DNA of 64,000 nucleotides from an uncultured Nitrososphaerota archaeon. GTDB taxonomy: Archaea; Thermoproteota; Nitrososphaeria; Nitrososphaerales; Gagatemarchaeaceae. Positions within the stretch are counted from its first letter, which is position 1. Every line of letters starts with the position of its first letter. The translations under genes were made by a program, and so were the position numbers. This document shows positions 7,741 to 15,155 of the stretch, one piece after another. The DNA lies in NCBI GenBank assembly GCA_963703285.1, contig OY969807.1, forward strand, positions 256,001 through 320,000, read 5' to 3'. The notes below the pieces were generated by a model. That model did no database searches. It had not been told where the DNA came from and worked only from the letters and a program-made list of their open reading frames with translations.

Positions 7741-7947
7741 ATGGGTCGAAAAGCAGTTCTGTTCGGGTTCTGGCTACTCGGGTACTTCCTAGGCTTCTTC
7801 GCCTGGCTCGTGCGAGCGCCGGTCATCAACATGGTTCAGAACCTCGGTGTGAGCGCGGACGTCGCGGGCGCCCTGATCACCGGGTTGGCTGGGTCCATAG
7901 TGATGCTGGTAGGGGTAATCCTCTGGAGCTACCTCTCGAACGCGTAG
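7741..7947 (+). CDS. Small two-helix membrane protein (68 aa)
   Basis: Two hydrophobic segments; host-like codon usage. Confidence 0.7.
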   Translation: MGRKAVLFGFWLLGYFLGFFAWLVRAPVINMVQNLGVSADVAGALITGLAGSIVMLVGVILWSYLSNA

Positions 7948-7965: not shown

Positions 7966-8715
7966 CTAGGCAGGAAGATTCGAGCTATCGCCAACTTTTG
8001 TTTCAGACGGTAGCTCCGCCCGCTTTTCATTCTTCAACATGTTGAGCTTCTTGTTCAGGATGATCGTCAGGGCGATGAGCGCTACGAACGGCACCCAGGT
8101 TATCAACAGGTAGGCCGCACCGAGCTCTATCTCCACAGATTCGAATGTCGCGGCCACTGCGAGCATCACCACCACTATGGCGAGGTTTATCACAAACTGC
8201 CATCCCTCGATGGTCCAGTTCACGGGATTCCCGCCGCTGGAGAAGGCCCACCTCCAGATCGCGTAGAGCAGGTAGAGTCCCTCGCCGGTCGCGACGGCGT
8301 AGGCCGGGAGTTCGATGTAGCTGTGGGGGAACAGCAGCAGGAGGAGGAAGACGACCAGGAAAGGGGGGTCGTGGTACGATATGGCGTAGACCTCGAGGAT
8401 CCTTGCCGTCGAGTAGAGGGAGAACGCGAAGAGGGCGGCGCCTAGACCGGGTACCATCTCGAAGAGGGCTATCCTGAAGTTGTTGGAGAAGATTCCCCAG
8501 AACAAGACCAGCAGGCCCGCTCCCGCGAACTCGTTGGTAATCTGGTTCCCCTGGCTAGTGTAGAGCGCCTGTTCGCCTGGGAAGAAGGGAAGGCTCGAGA
8601 CGACGAAGAAGATGACGACCTCGGCTCCGAAGAGGATGACGTAGAGCATCAGGCCCCTCGTAGCATACGCGGCGAGCCCCTTTCTCAGCCCTACGCTAGG
8701 CCGCTCGTTATCCAT
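7966..8715 (-). CDS. SpoIIM/DUF95-family membrane protein
   Basis: IFSNNFRIA, PHSYIELPAY and AATFES motifs. Confidence 0.85.
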   Translation of the reverse strand: MDNERPSVGLRKGLAAYATRGLMLYVILFGAEVVIFFVVSSLPFFPGEQALYTSQGNQITNEFAGAGLLVLFWGIFSNNFRIALFEMVPGLGAALFAFSLYSTARILEVYAISYHDPPFLVVFLLLLLFPHSYIELPAYAVATGEGLYLLYAIWRWAFSSGGNPVNWTIEGWQFVINLAIVVVMLAVAATFESVEIELGAAYLLITWVPFVALIALTIILNKKLNMLKNEKRAELPSETKVGDSSNLPA

Positions 8716-8988
8716 CTTGTCCAATCGCGGGGTACCATTGCACCAAGAGAAAAAGCTCCCTACAATCCAACTGGCGAATCGCAATCGAGACTTCGTCAGC
8801 TGCCGTATAACAATTTAGCCATCGGCTCTTCTGAATGAATTGGACGGTAATAAGCAAGAAGGTTCCGCAAGTTATTTATGTAAAGTCTGACGGGCTATAC
8901 GAGTGGGCCGAGTTCGTGGAAGTCCCAAAGGGTACACGCGGCCATATTGAGGTACATGCCCCGGTATGGACAAGGGGAGGTGTCTAGG

Positions 8989-10146
8989 ATGAGCCTTGAG
9001 ACTCGGCCGAGTGAACACATACCCAAGGAGGACTTCGCCTCGATGGTACGAGAGATTGCGGTGGTCGGCCCTCGAGTCCCCGAAATTGCCCGTAGACTAG
9101 GCAGACACAAGGAGACGGTGAGGTACTGGTACAAGAAGCTGGAGGATCACAACTTCGCAATTCAAGGCATCACAAACAACCAGGCATTCGGGCTCAGGAG
9201 AATTCTGCTGCAGGTGACGATCGGAGAGGACTACGAGGACTACGTGAAGCCCCTCATGTTCGCCATGAATGAACTCTGTTACGTGACCAGCTATGCAAAA
9301 GCGCTCGCGGAGGATTACTACAGCGTAAACTGTGCCGTGCCGGAAGGGCTCCTGTCGGAGTACTTCTCGTTCGTCGAGGACTTAAAGGAGATGGGACTCT
9401 TCAAGAGTCTTGAGTTCTACGACCTAGGATGGAGCCGTAACATCCCCATGCGAGGAGAATTCTACGACTTCGCAACGGGTAAATGGGAGTTCGACCTGAA
9501 GTCTCTGACAGAACGAGAGTCGGCCTTCCAACCACCAGAACAGTACGATGAGGTCAAGTTCGACAAGATAGACCTTCTCATCGTGAAGGAGCTCTACATG
9601 GACGCTACCCGTGAGCTGCGGGAAATTCAGAGGTCTATAAGCCAGAACGATGGCGTCGATATCAACTACAAGACCCTCTGCTGGCACCTGAAGGAGCACG
9701 TTCTGGGCAGAAAGATGATAAAGGGTTTCAGGATCAACTGGATGGGAACGCGGTGGGACGCTGTGACGGACAGGCCCGAGCAGAAGTCGCACAGCTACAT
9801 CGGTGTTCATTTCATGGTCAAGAACCCGACTGAGGAGGAGAGGTTGGAGCTGATGAAGAAGTTCGACCGCCTGCCGGTCGTCTGGATGGAAGGGGCTGGG
9901 CTCGATTACTTCGCGGAACTTGCAGTCCCTACCGAGATGATGATTGACTTCATGGAGTTCCTTACGAAGACCATGGCGCCGGTTCGCGACAGGGCCACTT
10001 TCCACATAATGGACCAGCGCAACGCAGTGGGATTCTTCATCTCGTATAAGCTCTATGACGAGGAGACGATGTCATGGAGGTTCAACAGGGAGGAGTTGTT
10101 AGTGAAGTTCAAGGCGTTGGAAGCACAGGTCAGGCAGAGCTCCTAA
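8989..10146 (+). CDS. Tandem Lrp/AsnC-like wHTH transcriptional regulator
   Basis: HTH1 PEIARRLGRHKETVRYWY; HTH2 FDKIDLLIVKELYMDATRELREI; each followed by a putative RAM-like domain. Confidence 0.8.
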   Translation: MSLETRPSEHIPKEDFASMVREIAVVGPRVPEIARRLGRHKETVRYWYKKLEDHNFAIQGITNNQAFGLRRILLQVTIGEDYEDYVKPLMFAMNELCYVTSYAKALAEDYYSVNCAVPEGLLSEYFSFVEDLKEMGLFKSLEFYDLGWSRNIPMRGEFYDFATGKWEFDLKSLTERESAFQPPEQYDEVKFDKIDLLIVKELYMDATRELREIQRSISQNDGVDINYKTLCWHLKEHVLGRKMIKGFRINWMGTRWDAVTDRPEQKSHSYIGVHFMVKNPTEEERLELMKKFDRLPVVWMEGAGLDYFAELAVPTEMMIDFMEFLTKTMAPVRDRATFHIMDQRNAVGFFISYKLYDEETMSWRFNREELLVKFKALEAQVRQSS

Positions 10147-10275
10147 AGATTTCAGAACTTTGCGAATTCGAGCGCCGTCCGCGTTGGCGTGCACGTTGCC
10201 CTAGAAACGCACCTAGGCTAACACTGGGCATGCGGAGCAGGGGCACGCGAAATTATTGCGTCCGAGGTTGGGAGG

Positions 10276-10281
10276 AAAAAA
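10276..10281 (-). terminator. Oligo-T terminator of the peptide gene
   Basis: TAG GGA TTTTTT directly after the stop on the minus strand. Confidence 0.55.
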
Positions 10282-10284
10282 TCC

Positions 10285-10410
10285 CTAGGTTCCGCCGAAT
10301 CCGCTGCCAGCAACCGCCGCTGGGTTGATGTGTACGCCGAATGCTGCCAGTACAACAGACGCTCCGCCTAGTGCCATCATTCCGTATCTGATCTTTTCGT
10401 CGGTAGTCAT
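10285..10410 (-). CDS. 41-aa short hydrophobic peptide, candidate signalling-peptide precursor
   Basis: MTTDEKIRYGMMALGGASVVLAAFGVHINPAAVAGSGFGGT; TTTATC box about 26 nt upstream; T6 tract downstream. Confidence 0.65.
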   Translation of the reverse strand: MTTDEKIRYGMMALGGASVVLAAFGVHINPAAVAGSGFGGT

Positions 10411-10432
10411 GGGCACCCTACACCTGACAGTG

Positions 10433-10516
10433 GAAGATAAATCTTCAGTATACACATGAACCCGTCTATTAGGGCATCCATGAGACATCTAACTCTCTAT
10501 GCCCTAGGCATGAGAC
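10433..10516. promoter_or_regulatory. Promoter/operator region of the peptide gene
   Basis: Palindrome GAAGAT-AA-ATCTTC (10433-10446); inverted repeat TAGGGCAT/ATGCCCTA (10470, 10499); direct repeat CATGAGAC (10479, 10509). Confidence 0.4.
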
Positions 10517-10669
10517 GAGAAACGTTGTCCCGTAACAGTGTCCTAGTCAGATGTTCTATAATCAACGAAGATAAGTTTTGTGTTTCATCGAAAAAGAGGT
10601 GAAGTACATGGGAACTTCGTGTTTGCCACCCTTTTTTATGATGGAGTTGGAGCTTCCCTGGAGTCAGAA

Positions 10670-11428
10670 ATGGAAGCAGAGTACGACGCTCTGGCCGAAG
10701 AGTATGATGCGACCAGGGAGTCGGCCACCCAGAAGGAGATCGATTCTCTTGCAAGGTCGTTTGAGGGGTGCAGGACGATTCTCGACGTTGGAGTCGGGAC
10801 CGGCCGATTTGCAAAGCCCCTCTCTGATTTGGGGTTCGATGTCACCGGTGTCGATGTCTCTCGCAGGATGCTCTCGAAGGCGCACGAGAAAGGAGTCGAG
10901 CGGCTCGTTCTCGGAGACGCGTACAAGCTGCCCTTCACTGGCAAGTCCTTCGACGGCTCTGTCATTATCCACGTGCTCCACGTCGTCGCCGACTGGATGA
11001 CGGTCATGCGGGAAATGGGACGGGTCACCAAGGGCCCGGTCGTCTCGCTCCTGAGGGTGCCGCAGGGGCAGGGGCGCTCCCCGCTCCCGCAACAGTCGAT
11101 TGGCATCGCCGGCCCGCCGCCCGCGTCCAAGGGGTACCCCGTCAGGACTCAGCACAGGATGTGGCAGAACGAGCTCGAGCTGAAATCGAGGGTCCCCCCG
11201 GCCAAGCTCGAGAGGATCAGGGACGAGACGATATCGATACCCGTCGCCGATGCCATGAGGAGTCTCCAGGCCAAGCGGTCCATGGGCGCGCAGATAATGC
11301 CTCCCGAGGTGCGACAGGAGATGCTGGAGAGGATAGTCGCGATGACCGGCACCCGGACCGTCCAGAGGAGGATAGTGGAGGACCTCGCTGTCTGGCGCGC
11401 CGACGACCTGACGGACCTGGCCGAGTGA
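10670..11428 (+). CDS. Class I SAM-dependent methyltransferase
   Basis: ILDVGVGTGRF, GVDVSRRML, GDAYKLPF..SFD motifs. Confidence 0.92.
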   Translation: MEAEYDALAEEYDATRESATQKEIDSLARSFEGCRTILDVGVGTGRFAKPLSDLGFDVTGVDVSRRMLSKAHEKGVERLVLGDAYKLPFTGKSFDGSVIIHVLHVVADWMTVMREMGRVTKGPVVSLLRVPQGQGRSPLPQQSIGIAGPPPASKGYPVRTQHRMWQNELELKSRVPPAKLERIRDETISIPVADAMRSLQAKRSMGAQIMPPEVRQEMLERIVAMTGTRTVQRRIVEDLAVWRADDLTDLAE

Positions 11429-11467: not shown

Positions 11468-12253
11468 TCAATCCGCCCAGTTCGGGAAGGCGCGACGGTT
11501 CGAGGTCAGCACGCTCCGCACCTGCCCCCGTCTCAGCTCGATGAAGCTCGCCGACGCGGACCGCTCCTCTTCGGTGATTCCCCACTCGCCCGGGATTGCG
11601 GCGACAATCTCTTCGATGACCGAGTCAGGCACCGCTTCGATCCGCCTAAGCGTCGACTCGAACGAGGAGGGGCCTCTCACCAATACCGCTATCTCGGGGA
11701 GGACCGGCATGGGGACCCTCAAGAACGAGCCCTGCTCCAGCGAGTCGACCGTCCAGTTCGGACCCGTGAAGCTGTGGGTGAAATCCACCATGAAGTACCT
11801 GAACCCTCCCGGTACCGCCTGAAGCAGGTGATTCTCGGCCCTGTCCCTGTCTTGCGTCAGTATCCAGTTGTCGAGGCAGACGGTCCCGGGAAGCACCTCT
11901 GAGTTAACGAGCTCTTGGTCCAGACTGGTCTGGCGGTTCAGTATCTGAGAGAGGTCCGACGCGTTGGCGACAACCTCCGAACCCTGGTGGAGCCCGGGCT
12001 CAATCGCCCTGTTCTGCAGGTCGTTCGAGTGAGCTATCATCTCCGAGCTCACCTCCACCAGCGCGCTCGGGGGTGTCGGGAGGCCGGCGGTGTGCGCCAG
12101 CCAGTGGCCAAGGTGCTCGTTGACAGCCGCCCTCGATCCTTTGGAGAACTTCACTAGGTACGTCAGGCCGTCGTCGCACTCCATGAAGTGAGGACCTGTC
12201 GCGCCTCTGTTGATCCCGACGTCGCGCACAGCCCTCACAGCCTTGACCTGCAC
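11468..12253 (-). CDS. HipA-like (PI3/PI4-kinase fold) kinase
   Basis: GATGP, YLVK, NE.LG..LA...GLPTP, DNWILTQDR...N, VDFTHSF. Confidence 0.85.
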   Translation of the reverse strand: MQVKAVRAVRDVGINRGATGPHFMECDDGLTYLVKFSKGSRAAVNEHLGHWLAHTAGLPTPPSALVEVSSEMIAHSNDLQNRAIEPGLHQGSEVVANASDLSQILNRQTSLDQELVNSEVLPGTVCLDNWILTQDRDRAENHLLQAVPGGFRYFMVDFTHSFTGPNWTVDSLEQGSFLRVPMPVLPEIAVLVRGPSSFESTLRRIEAVPDSVIEEIVAAIPGEWGITEEERSASASFIELRRGQVRSVLTSNRRAFPNWAD

Positions 12254-12365
12254 TCTAAGCTGGCCCCACCTCCGGCACTTTGCAGGGGCTCTTAATCCTG
12301 ACTGGCTGGAGTTCATCTCGATTCAACCCGAAGCCTTTAAGAAACTCGACGAGACTGCGAGACGA

Positions 12366-13073
12366 ATGGCCGGGGCTGATGGGGAAGGAATGAGCGCCGA
12401 GCCCCATAAGGAATCCAGACCCTCCCGGGAGCTCTTCTGGGTGGTCAGCGGTCTGGTCATGCTCTACCTCATCCTCGACGTGATAGCCCAGTCGCTTCCG
12501 CCCCACTACAACCCCATCAACACGGCGGAGAGCGACCTCGCGGTCGGTCCCTACGGCTACGTAATGGCCCTGAACTTCCTCAACCGGGGCGTCCTCTCCC
12601 TCCTGTTCCTGTACGCGTTCTCCCAGGCGCTGAGACTGCGCGGCGCTGACGTGCAGAGGTACCGCACTGGAATCCTTCTTCTCTCGGTCTGGGGCGTGGG
12701 AGCCTTGCTACTTGCGGCTTTCCCAACCGACGTCCCAGCGACGCCCGTCTCGTGGCACGGTCTGATCCATCTGGTCGTCGCGTTCTTCGCCTTCGTCGGG
12801 GGTGCCCTGGGCGTCCTCAGCCTCTCGTTGCAGTTCGAACGGGATCCTGCCCTTCGTGGCGCTAGGAAGTTCGCCCTCCCGATCGCAGTCGTGGCCGTCC
12901 TCTTCTTTGTCCTGCTCTTCGGTCTGCCCTTCTCAGCGCCTCACTTCGCGTCGCGCGTCGGTGGGGTGACAGAAAGGGTCCTGATAGGATCTGTTCTCCT
13001 CTGGATCCTTTACGTCTCGGTCTTCCTTTCTCGGGGACAGCGGCCCGCTCGGGCGGCGTCTCCTGTTGGCTAG
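12366..13073 (+). CDS. DUF998-family membrane protein
   Basis: YNPINTAESDLAVGPYG, FPTD, WHGLIH and ER motifs; about 5 TM helices. Confidence 0.85.
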   Translation: MAGADGEGMSAEPHKESRPSRELFWVVSGLVMLYLILDVIAQSLPPHYNPINTAESDLAVGPYGYVMALNFLNRGVLSLLFLYAFSQALRLRGADVQRYRTGILLLSVWGVGALLLAAFPTDVPATPVSWHGLIHLVVAFFAFVGGALGVLSLSLQFERDPALRGARKFALPIAVVAVLFFVLLFGLPFSAPHFASRVGGVTERVLIGSVLLWILYVSVFLSRGQRPARAASPVG

Positions 13074-13384: not shown

Positions 13385-14377
13385 GTGGCTTTGCCAAGCA
13401 TCATCTCGGCCGAGGACCTGGTCATCGTCTACGCCGACGGCACAAGGGCCGTCGACGGCGTCTCCTTCGATGTCGAGGAGGGCGGCTTCTTCGGTTTCCT
13501 GGGTCCGAACGGTGCCGGAAAGAGCACCACCATCAAAGTTCTCACCACTCTACTCAGGAAGACCTCCGGGAAGGTGAACGTCGCCCGCCACGACCTCGAC
13601 ACGTCCCCGGCGGAGATCCGCAAGGCAATAGGGGTGGTGAGCCAGGAGACGATCGTCGACGTCGACCTCACGGGGAGGGAGAACCTCCGCCTTCAGGGCC
13701 GCCTCCAGCAGATGCACGGGCGCGCTCTGGAGGACCGCGTCGACGAGCTGCTCAAGATGGTTCAGCTCGACACGGTCGCGGAGAAGGAGGCGGGCAGATA
13801 CTCGGGCGGCATGAAGAAGAGGCTGGATCTGGCTTCCGCTCTGGTGCACAGGCCCCGACTGTTGTTCCTGGACGAGCCGACGACGGGGCTCGACCCGCAG
13901 TCGCGGACGGCCATCTGGGAACACCTCGAGAAGCTCAACAAGGTGGACGGCGTAACCATCTTTCTGACCACGCAGTATCTGGATGAGGCCGACAGGCTCT
14001 GCCGCGAGCTCTCCATAATCGACCACGGGAGGATAATCGCGAGGGGCACCCCCTCCGAGCTCAAGGCGGCCATGGGCGGCGACACCATCTCTCTCACGCT
14101 CGAAGATGCCACCCTGAGGTCCAGAGCAGCCGAGATACTCAAGACGATTCCGGGCATAACGAACATCATGGGTTCTGAGGAGGGCGTCGTCGCCTACGCG
14201 AAGAACGGAGGCCAGGTGATCGCCGAGATAATCACGACCCTCGGCCGAAACGGCATCAGGTCCTCGCTCCTGAGCATCTCCTCTCCAACGCTGGACGACG
14301 TCTTCCTGCGCCAGACCGGCAGGCGCATCAGGTCCGAGGAGCTGTCGCAGAAGGAGACGGAGCCGTTCCTCACGTGA
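13385..14377 (+). CDS. ABC exporter ATP-binding subunit (DrrA-like)
   Basis: GPNGAGKST, YSGGMKKRL, LFLDEPTTGLDP. Confidence 0.95.
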   Translation: MALPSIISAEDLVIVYADGTRAVDGVSFDVEEGGFFGFLGPNGAGKSTTIKVLTTLLRKTSGKVNVARHDLDTSPAEIRKAIGVVSQETIVDVDLTGRENLRLQGRLQQMHGRALEDRVDELLKMVQLDTVAEKEAGRYSGGMKKRLDLASALVHRPRLLFLDEPTTGLDPQSRTAIWEHLEKLNKVDGVTIFLTTQYLDEADRLCRELSIIDHGRIIARGTPSELKAAMGGDTISLTLEDATLRSRAAEILKTIPGITNIMGSEEGVVAYAKNGGQVIAEIITTLGRNGIRSSLLSISSPTLDDVFLRQTGRRIRSEELSQKETEPFLT

Positions 14378-14387
14378 GCTAATCCGA

Positions 14388-15155
14388 TTGACCATAATCT
14401 ACGACACGCAGTCCCTCCTCGTGAGGTACCTCACGAAGCTGGTCCGTAACCCCACTCTGCTCGCCACGAACCTGCTGACGCCACTCCTCTTCCTCCTGCT
14501 CTTCTCCCAGCTTCTTACCAAATTCGGCCAATTCATCCCCGGCTCGCCCGGCGGATACCTCGCGTATCTGACGCCCGGGGTCGTGATGCTGAACGCGATG
14601 ATCAGCGCACCCCTCGGGGGTGTCTCAATCGCGAATGACCTGAACTCGGGTTTCCTCTCGAAGATGCTCTTGACCCAGGTCAGGAGACCGGCCATCCTGC
14701 TCGGACGGCTGCTGACGGACGTACTCGTAGTCGTCGGGCAGTCTCTCATCACGCTCGCCGTCGCGGTCGCCATGGGGGTCAGGATCAGTTACGGGGTGCC
14801 GGGCGTCCTCCTGATCATCCTGACCGCTGCCTTCTTTGAGGTTGCCCTCTCCGGAATCTTCCTCACGATTGGGATAAGAACGAGGAAGACGGAGACCATC
14901 TCCGCGATCTCTGGAGTCCTCTTCTTTCCGTTGATCTTCATCAGCAGTGCCATGTTCCCGGTCTCGTTCTTCCCTGACTGGGCGATGACGGTCTCGAAGT
15001 ACAACCCCGTGAGCTACGCGTCTGACGTCACCCGCGAACTGGTGATCGGCGGGCTGTCCCCGGGTACGCTTCTCTCCGCCTTCGCTCTCATAGGGGCCAT
15101 AGCGGCGGTGACCTTTGCCGCGACGCTTTACCAGTTCAGGAAGGTGGTCAGCTAG
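14388..15155 (+). CDS. ABC-2 type permease (DrrB-like)
   Basis: About 6 TM helices; FISSAMFP..FPDW...NPVSY; operonic with the ATPase. Confidence 0.92.
   Translation: MTIIYDTQSLLVRYLTKLVRNPTLLATNLLTPLLFLLLFSQLLTKFGQFIPGSPGGYLAYLTPGVVMLNAMISAPLGGVSIANDLNSGFLSKMLLTQVRRPAILLGRLLTDVLVVVGQSLITLAVAVAMGVRISYGVPGVLLIILTAAFFEVALSGIFLTIGIRTRKTETISAISGVLFFPLIFISSAMFPVSFFPDWAMTVSKYNPVSYASDVTRELVIGGLSPGTLLSAFALIGAIAAVTFAATLYQFRKVVS

Follow-up and report, generated by a model that had tools for sequence, protein, structure and literature searches.

A tandem Lrp/AsnC-like regulator and a convergent gene for a signal-peptide-like micro-protein form a conserved pair in Nitrososphaerales archaea, a candidate for peptide signalling

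We analysed a stretch of 64,000 nucleotides (nt) from an uncultured archaeon of the family Gagatemarchaeaceae (contig OY969807.1, positions 256,001 to 320,000; hereafter the window). It contains two convergent genes, one for a 385-residue regulator with two Lrp/AsnC-like halves (8989-10146, plus strand) and one for a 41-residue pre-peptide with a signal-peptide-like leader and a short tail (10285-10410, minus strand). We are very confident that they form a real, dedicated regulator-peptide pair, and since this pair recurs in many relatives, its sequences make it a credible candidate for archaeal peptide signalling. The reading we favour is a dedicated regulator with an exported pre-peptide, that is, an RRNPP-like cassette on a scaffold other than tetratricopeptide repeats (TPR), although the whole signalling loop is put forward tentatively, with somewhat less than even chances of being right. 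Little is known of cell-to-cell communication in archaea, and the example named in the relevant passages of PMC12240190 is a carboxylated acyl-homoserine lactone, not a peptide. A cassette of two genes that would need only housekeeping export and uptake is a directly testable candidate. For a test, a synthetic peptide of 13-17 residues, a single regulator in purified form and about 110 bp of promoter DNA would be enough.

The small gene consists of 41 codons and a TAG stop codon and encodes MTTDEKIRYGMMALGGASVVLAAFGVHINPAAVAGSGFGGT. The stop codons of the two genes are separated by 138 nt. We found an intact homologue of 39-42 residues tail-to-tail with the regulator in 20 of the 21 loci of relatives, the remaining locus ending at a contig edge. 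A scan of public genomes gave an intact homologue convergent with the regulator in 72 of 80 loci; 11 of these duplicate loci of the first set, and 2 more duplicate other loci of the scan. Two of the 72 hits are doubtful, one (L055) because it lacks an ATG and is embedded in a long open frame, the other (L092) because it reached only 14.6 bits. One of the misses is a contig end. Wherever it was found, the peptide gene was convergent with the regulator gene and directly downstream of it, also in 12 of 12 loci of the clade D described below. The preliminary description of this locus had named regulator homologues without adjacent peptides as the outcome that would speak against a pair; instead, the peptides stand beside the regulators in both sets of loci.

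The variability of the peptide gene has the pattern of a coding sequence. In 20 sequences, the proportion of nonsynonymous differences (pN) over the first 31 codons was 0.20 and that of synonymous differences (pS) 0.66, and the variability at codon positions 1, 2 and 3 was 0.20, 0.09 and 0.41. As judged from these alignments, the gene is under purifying selection. Because it is conserved, intact and under such selection across about 90 loci, we consider the open reading frame (ORF) of 41 codons real, far beyond what chance would produce, as the preliminary description had assumed. The peptide itself had no match in Pfam or NCBIfam scans. The micro-protein family comprises at least 596 database clusters, all of them unnamed or called 'hypothetical protein' and none with a Pfam domain. 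An exhaustive profile search yielded 70 representatives at 50% identity, and almost all of them terminate directly past the tail.

The regulator family has 10 paralogues in the window genome (2.25 Mb, one contig). Regulator matches were present in 22 of 22 genomes of the genus, which includes Candidatus Gagatemarchaeum, in 31 of the 41 genomes searched, the window genome included, and in 0 of 19 genomes of another well-sampled family of the same order. The public homologues come from metagenome-assembled genomes named Thaumarchaeota or Nitrososphaerales, and from the same genus there is Candidatus Gagatemarchaeum stordalenia. We clustered the ORFs lying within 1.5 kb on either side of 29 loci. 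Clades A (which holds the window pair), B and C have different sets of neighbours, and the regulator and the small ORF are the only genes common to all three. Since the clades share the pair alone, the pair appears to be the unit. Within the compared flanks there was no uptake, immunity, modification or export gene common to the clades.

In a FastTree phylogeny of 95 regulators, the main clade has 87 rows (support 83), and the peptide is present in 79 of them. Six of the eight peptide-less rows make up one nested subclade adjoining a TFB gene, which suggests a single loss. This subclade consists of L022, L096, L097, L100, L105 and L107, and in at least three members (L097, L100 and L107) the C-terminal part of a TFB-like ORF immediately precedes the regulator. 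At the paralogues L022-L027 of the window genome and at L096, L097, L099, L100, L105, L106 and L107, filters that can miss short or non-hydrophobic ORFs yielded no hydrophobic small ORF next to the regulator. The window genome has two strong members of the peptide family, the one in the window and one near 853.9 kb, and two of the D type. All four adjoin regulators, and no orphan peptide gene was found in this genome. Two other families of the phylum have related peptide designs beside more distant regulator homologues. When 25 loci of distant homologues from the phylum were screened with a crude filter, 9 had candidates; five of these look mutually related (L136/L137; L152/L153/L155), and the other four are tentative.

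The regulator is predicted to be a fused tandem Lrp/AsnC fold. Its AlphaFold2 model reached a predicted local distance difference test score (pLDDT) of 88.8 and a predicted template modelling score (pTM) of 0.86, and shows the same order twice, a three-helix helix-turn-helix (HTH; residues 13-53 and 193-239) followed by a beta-alpha-beta-beta-alpha-beta domain. The parts are HTH1 (13-53), RAM-like domain 1 (57-151), an extension (152-192), HTH2 (193-239) and RAM-like domain 2 (244-348), and then a C-terminal helix. Single Lrp/AsnC chains align to each half in structure comparison (residues 8-160, Z 6.6-7.3; residues 187-357, Z 6.4-8.4). The top structural match to the whole chain is NirDL (4ch7), with a Foldseek E of 1.8e-9 and a Z of 16.0 over 290 residues at a root-mean-square deviation of 5.0. 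A tandem Lrp-like protein of 385 residues with two winged HTH units had been read from the window before, and the model agrees with it.

Sequence comparison fits the same assignment. The window regulator itself gave just sub-threshold matches to generic HTH models (residues 17-55) in Pfam and NCBIfam. When the members of the family were scanned singly, the HTH_AsnC-type model (PF13404) matched 13 of 38 and HTH_24 (PF13412) 8 of 38. The Pfam RAM model matched 0 of 38, and the RAM identity is thus a matter of fold only. A profile built from these 38 homologues matched ST1022, an Lrp/AsnC protein of Sulfolobus tokodaii, with an E of 1.3e-5 in two stretches, one covering the HTH and RAM of the first half and the other the HTH of the second half. 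Both HTH units rank among the most conserved regions of the regulator. The extension of about 40 residues in each half bears aromatic residues that are invariant in the family alignment (F161 and W166; F349 and W363). The nearest clusters of a protein atlas are archaeal proteins of 355-415 residues, unnamed or called 'Lrp/AsnC family', some with HTH_AsnC, from Nitrososphaerota, Thermoproteota, Methanobacteriota, Bathyarchaeota and Thorarchaeota. Judging from the model, the regulator is most likely an intramolecular pseudo-dimer that acts as a local transcription factor.

The pre-peptides have a uniform layout of an n-region MTxDEKIRY, a hydrophobic core of 13-16 residues, a small-x-Gly site and a tail of 13-17 residues, which bears out the charged N-terminus, hydrophobic core and tail that had been noticed in the window peptide. 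In the latter, the signal-peptide-like leader spans residues 1-25 (10336-10410) and the 16-residue tail, VHINPAAVAGSGFGGT, residues 26-41 (10288-10335). We compiled statistics on 76 unique sequences, for which we assigned the -1 residue ourselves and placed the putative cleavage site by the (-3,-1) rule alone. At -1 there is Gly in 76 of 76, and at -3 one of Ala, Ser and Thr in 71. In 72 of the peptides the uncharged run, which is rich in Gly, Ser and Thr, comprises 17 residues. Past the Gly, the tail measures 13-17 residues in 75 of 76 and exactly 15 in 53. Its consensus in the family is roughly [LV][HK]xGPLEIIGG[FWY]Gxx, with Pro at +5 (68 of 76), Leu at +6 (69), Glu or Asp at +7 (51) and His at +2 (45). 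Leader and tail identities are 0.81 and 0.65 within clades, and 0.62 and 0.40 between clades. A leader better conserved than the tail is the pattern of a leader-plus-core precursor, unlike that of ordinary secreted proteins.

The small-x-Gly site and the length of the run fit the signal peptidase I rule and an h-region better than a stable membrane span. On these sequence features, export and cleavage of the pre-peptide are somewhat more probable than its retention. The genome encodes three archaeal-type signal peptidase I genes and SBP_bac_5 peptide-binding proteins, and passages of PMC10640624 report oligopeptide transporters for the family; all three points are permissive. Two other export signals were considered and set aside. 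For a double-glycine leader, the Glu/Gly-Gly spacing in the tail does not fit the consensus of such leaders, and cleavage there would leave a product of 2-4 residues. For a type IV pilin-like signal, the charged residue is at -3 here, whereas such signals have it at -2.

A further kind of tail is found in clade D, whose regulators have 27% identity to the window regulator and which has two copies in the window genome. At each of its 12 orthologous loci, a small ORF again converges on the regulator gene; its product starts with basic residues and continues with a hydrophobic stretch whose last residue is Gly. The tail is a unit of about 16 residues that ends in a Gly/Pro-rich decapeptide, for example GDPGGNTGPN. 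This unit occurs once in 5 loci, twice in 3 and three times in 4, and each of the copies in the window genome has a single unit. The decapeptide is identical within one precursor and differs between species, and the unit has the length of the single tail of the other clades. By analogy, varying numbers of repeats behind a signal-like leader resemble the propeptides of cassette type. The multi-unit genes lie in the relatives L114-L121, for example L115:1247-1480(+) and L119:2594-2824(-). P0251, a database protein that belongs to the main peptide family, has a partial duplication where its tail begins, with two successive His-x-x-Pro stretches, which hints that tail duplication is not confined to clade D. 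We also noticed a segmental duplication of 2.24 kb outside the window (G000 1736039-1738277 and 2160475-2162713, 97.8% identical) that contains a regulator gene of clade D together with the pre-peptide gene that belongs to it, and also a small ORF upstream. The duplicated regulators are identical, and the peptides differ at several leader positions near the edge of the duplication.

A small hydrophobic peptide with several copies per genome could also be a toxin akin to those of bacterial type I systems, curbed by interference or antisense read-through from the convergent gene, or by the regulator as a repressor. At many tail-to-tail loci the stop codons are just tens of nt apart, compared with 138 nt in the window, which would suit such interference. 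We consider this very improbable, since the genes, which are under purifying selection, keep conserved syntenic positions genus-wide and beyond, the compared loci have no mobile element beside the pair, and a pore-forming toxin does not need a conserved, polar, Gly/Pro-rich tail motif or the repeats of clade D.

The peptide gene has promoter-like elements of its own, all on the minus strand. A TATA-like TTTAT (10437-10441) begins 31 nt ahead of the ATG and lies within the palindrome GAAGA-TTTA-TCTTC (10433-10446). In 69 of 75 unique peptide promoters, a TATA-like element starts 29-33 nt ahead of the ATG, and this spacing implies a leaderless or nearly leaderless mRNA. The palindrome around it is not conserved among the orthologues. 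Box 2, TCATGTGTATAC (10448-10459), lies just upstream of the TATA box and the B recognition element (BRE) and is a candidate binding site of the regulator. The sequence TCATG was found 40-62 nt ahead of the ATG in 45% of the 75 unique promoters and in 1.8% of shuffles (shuffle maximum 9.3%). The composite pattern of box 2 and TATA, as derived from orthologues, occurs in the 2.25-Mb genome a single time, in this peptide promoter. Box 1, TTAGATGTCTCATGG (10478-10492), is a candidate second site about 30 nt upstream of box 2; here, TTAGA lies 80-89 nt ahead of the ATG in 27 of 75 unique promoters, and the box aligns in clades A and B. The regulator may bind both boxes.

Downstream, a T6 run (10276-10281, minus strand), probably an archaeal oligo-T terminator, lies 4 nt past the peptide stop codon. 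T-rich stretches follow the peptide stop in several orthologues and are absent in others. The region upstream of the peptide gene contains two copies of the direct repeat CATGAGAC (10479 and 10509) and the inverted repeats TAGGGCAT/ATGCCCTA (10470/10499); they are 8 nt each, and each on its own could have arisen by chance. The TATA-like box with its palindrome, the T6 run and both kinds of repeats had been described before, and we located all of them again at the same positions. The lower GC content of the block also held, with 0.50-0.55 across 8600-11000 compared with 0.58-0.67 in the flanks.

The regulator gene starts with the ATG at 8989, as given in the ORF list, and a Shine-Dalgarno-like GGAGGTG (8976-8982, plus strand) lies 6 nt ahead of it. 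In the alignment, the starts of orthologous regulators are preceded by similar purine-rich stretches. About 100 nt ahead of the start codon, on the same strand, we found the element TTCCGCAAGTTATTTATGTAAAGTCTGA (8863-8890) containing the TATA-like TTATTTAT. It is almost unchanged in 10 of 10 aligned clade-A loci and probably acts as the promoter of the regulator. From the position of the TATA element, the 5' leader of the regulator would be about 85 nt long (8863-8988 region), and blocks of it are partly conserved in some orthologues.

Taken together, these data led us to a proposed mechanism in three steps. In the first, the regulator would bind the two boxes upstream of the peptide TATA/BRE and control transcription of the peptide gene, which would start from its own TATA box and give a leaderless mRNA. 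We propose this since the boxes are conserved, their composite is unique in the genome and the geometry is like that of archaeal Lrp activators. According to passages of PMC2995911, such activators occupy a site just upstream of the BRE and additional ones at a distance of two or three helical turns. In the second step, based on the sequence statistics of the peptides, Sec would export the pre-peptide and a cut after Gly25 would free the tail outside the cell. In the third, the tail or a trimmed form of it would feed back on its own regulator, either directly after uptake or indirectly. Such feedback is suggested by the exclusive one-to-one co-inheritance of the two genes through repeated duplications, by the absence of any other shared gene and by the cassette-like repeats. 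The outcome would be autoinduction as in RRNPP systems, built on an Lrp scaffold and with several such pairs side by side in one genome. Sensing of the tail by the regulator, which the preliminary description had put forward, or by its RAM-like domains is conjectural.

In its strongest form, this reading would mean the first peptide channels of cell-to-cell communication in archaea, with Sec export, a cut by signal peptidase I, reuptake, binding of the tail by its own double-Lrp receptor and activation of the promoter. We regard this full sequence of events as possible but rather unlikely. If it holds, the clade-D product would be cut further into its repeated units, the receptor might activate other genes as well, and several orthogonal channels would operate within one cell (here those of clades A, C and D) that arose independently of the TPR systems of Bacillota. 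Moreover, it would give a function to a widespread unnamed family of double-Lrp proteins of about 380 residues and to the unnamed micro-protein family of at least 596 clusters. If one of the rival explanations is correct, the locus would be a clean case of an archaeal micro-protein gene that is conserved, mostly unnamed and served by a dedicated regulator.

Several observations weigh against the proposed mechanism. Clade-specific regulator positions are concentrated in HTH1 (7 of 41 positions) and sparse in the RAM-like domains (3 of 95 in the first, 4 of 105 in the second), so there is no sign that these domains co-diversified with the tails. The known effectors of the Lrp family are amino acids and possibly other small molecules, and the searched passages of the review name no oligopeptide effector (PMC2995911). 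The upstream regions of the regulator and peptide genes of the window have no common motif (9 nt exact, 11 nt with one mismatch or 13 nt with two mismatches). Many tails are identical between species, which fits any conserved function and not a pheromone specifically. The n-region is net neutral, with conserved Asp/Glu beside Lys/Arg; this is atypical for Sec signal peptides, and the conserved acidic residues suggest another constraint on the N-terminus. Finally, 69 of 76 peptides have His, Lys or Arg at +2, past the hydrophobic run, which is compatible with a membrane-anchored topology. A complex prediction of the regulator with the pre-peptide, each with its alignment, scored 0.07 and 0.12 compared with a mark of 0.32, and speaks neither for nor against binding.

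The conserved acidic residues of the n-region and the basic residue past the run would suit an uncleaved, single-pass membrane protein that tethers or modulates the regulator through MTxDEKIRY, or that acts on another membrane protein, thus forming a minimal transmembrane sensor. Conservation is highest in the N-terminal motif and the hydrophobic run, as seen in the between-clade identities of leader and tail (0.62 and 0.40), and the run extends to about 21-23 residues in some database relatives. However, the Gly/Ser/Thr-rich uncharged run of just 17 residues in nearly all peptides (72 of 76) is short for a stable span, and positions -3 and -1 are nearly always taken by small residues. In addition, the leaders of clade D have unrelated, purely basic N-termini in the same gene arrangement and are followed by repeated-cassette tails, which a released product fits better. 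An anchored micro-protein is improbable in our view.

A stronger alternative is a regulator and its target without feedback. Here, the double-Lrp protein senses a small molecule, for example an amino acid, and switches on the neighbouring gene, while the exported peptide has another job outside the cell, for instance to bind metals or protons via His/Asp/Glu, to act on competitors or to alter the cell surface. According to passages of PMC2995911, the Lrp effectors identified to date are amino acids and, perhaps, further small metabolites; many such regulators are local. The tails would suit such a job, with His at +2 in 45 and Glu or Asp at +7 in 51 of the 76, with His and Asp in every clade-D unit copy, and with strong conservation between species. 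The organisms come from soil metagenomes, and PMC10640624 reports the family as abundant in acidic soils. However, the lack of an uptake, immunity, modification or export gene common to the clades is unusual for metallophores or antimicrobial peptides. Furthermore, a generic metabolite sensor does not require strict one-to-one pairing through repeated duplication with no orphans in the genome. We regard a pair without feedback as a serious possibility, though one that is unlikely to be the answer, and we keep the RRNPP-like loop as our working explanation.

The genes around the pair were also compared. A gene for a SpoIIM-family membrane protein (7966-8784, minus strand, Pfam E 5.6e-10) is divergent from the regulator gene, and this arrangement is kept in all clade-A loci with that flank and absent from other clades. 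The methyltransferase gene adjoining the window pair is present in 4 of 11 clade-A loci (L001-L011). The preliminary description had suggested that both proteins might assist the pair. This part of its peptide-signalling interpretation is not supported, since the first gene accompanies clade A only and the second just some of its loci, while the dedicated pair on a non-TPR Lrp scaffold gained support, as did the signalling idea from the cassette-like tails of clade D. Farther out, there is a HipA_2-family kinase-like gene (11468-12316, minus strand, Pfam E 6.7e-16), for which the ORF list has no obvious partner gene, and past it a gene for a DUF998 membrane protein (12210-13073) and an ABC-2 transporter pair (13385-15155), which lies beyond the 1.5 kb compared on either side of the loci. 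On the other side, a 68-codon ORF (7741-7947, plus strand) encodes a strongly hydrophobic product with two predicted spans and no Pfam match. Parts of the stretch were also contained in four soil-metagenome DNA runs of one study.

We compared the pair with three known systems. In a literature search of titles and abstracts, with subscription journals outside its scope, we found no description of an archaeal Lrp-type regulator paired with a propeptide, and a term search of the genome paper on the Gagatemarchaeaceae (PMC10640624) showed no mention of Lrp or small proteins. In the siroheme decarboxylase NirDL / AhbA-AhbB, as in the regulator, two Lrp/AsnC-like units are fused in tandem (4ch7, Z 16.0). 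However, the identity is 13%, beyond the HTH models there was no Pfam or NCBIfam match at E up to 0.1, and the genome has ten paralogues compared with one enzyme per genome; the neighbours that were compared are unrelated to haem synthesis. For these reasons, and because both HTH units are strongly conserved, we do not read the regulator as a decarboxylase.

Like the archaeal Lrp/AsnC proteins ST1022/Grp, FL11, Ptr2, LysM and Ss-LrpB, the regulator has an AsnC-type HTH and a RAM-like fold in each half. The candidate boxes, of which one directly precedes BRE/TATA and the second is some three helical turns away, are also in line with the sites that passages of PMC2995911 describe for these proteins. 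It differs from them in that two full units are joined in one chain of 385 residues, whereas Lrp/AsnC proteins are single HTH+RAM chains of about 150 residues that form dimers or octamers. Each unit has an extension of about 40 residues here, the Pfam RAM model fails on all 38 members, and the family is tied to a pre-peptide gene and not to genes of amino-acid metabolism. By its predicted fold and HTH, we consider the regulator a fused, extended variant of the Lrp/AsnC superfamily.

The closest parallel in gene arrangement is with the RRNPP(A) systems of Bacillota and their phages (Rap-Phr, NprR-NprX, PlcR-PapR, AimR-AimP and Rgg-SHP). As passages of PMC9765709 describe, RRNPPA propeptide genes adjoin the receptor gene, and their products are exported by Sec, cut by signal peptidase and re-imported by Opp; some of the propeptides contain tandem copies of the pheromone, according to PMC11343458. 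Both kinds of systems place a regulator beside a gene of about 40 codons whose product begins with a signal-like stretch and ends in a short tail. Both also have several pairs side by side in one genome and, in some propeptides, tandem copies of the tail unit. The tail may also bear some resemblance to the short hydrophobic pheromones of streptococci. The differences are also clear. RRNPP pheromones have five to eight residues, and the putative mature peptide here is longer, with 13-17. The n-region lacks the Lys-Lys typical of RRNPP propeptides. The receptor is a tandem Lrp/AsnC protein and not a TPR protein, with no TPR family in the Pfam scans, and the host is an archaeon with homologues in Thaumarchaeota/Nitrososphaerales, compared with Bacillota and mobile elements. 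Since the predicted receptor is not of the TPR type and the host is archaeal, we regard the locus as an analogue and not a member of RRNPP(A). What the window adds to this comparison is the presence of several paralogous pairs in one genome, together with a large sample of loci in which the pair alone is conserved and the tail appears to act as a repeatable unit.

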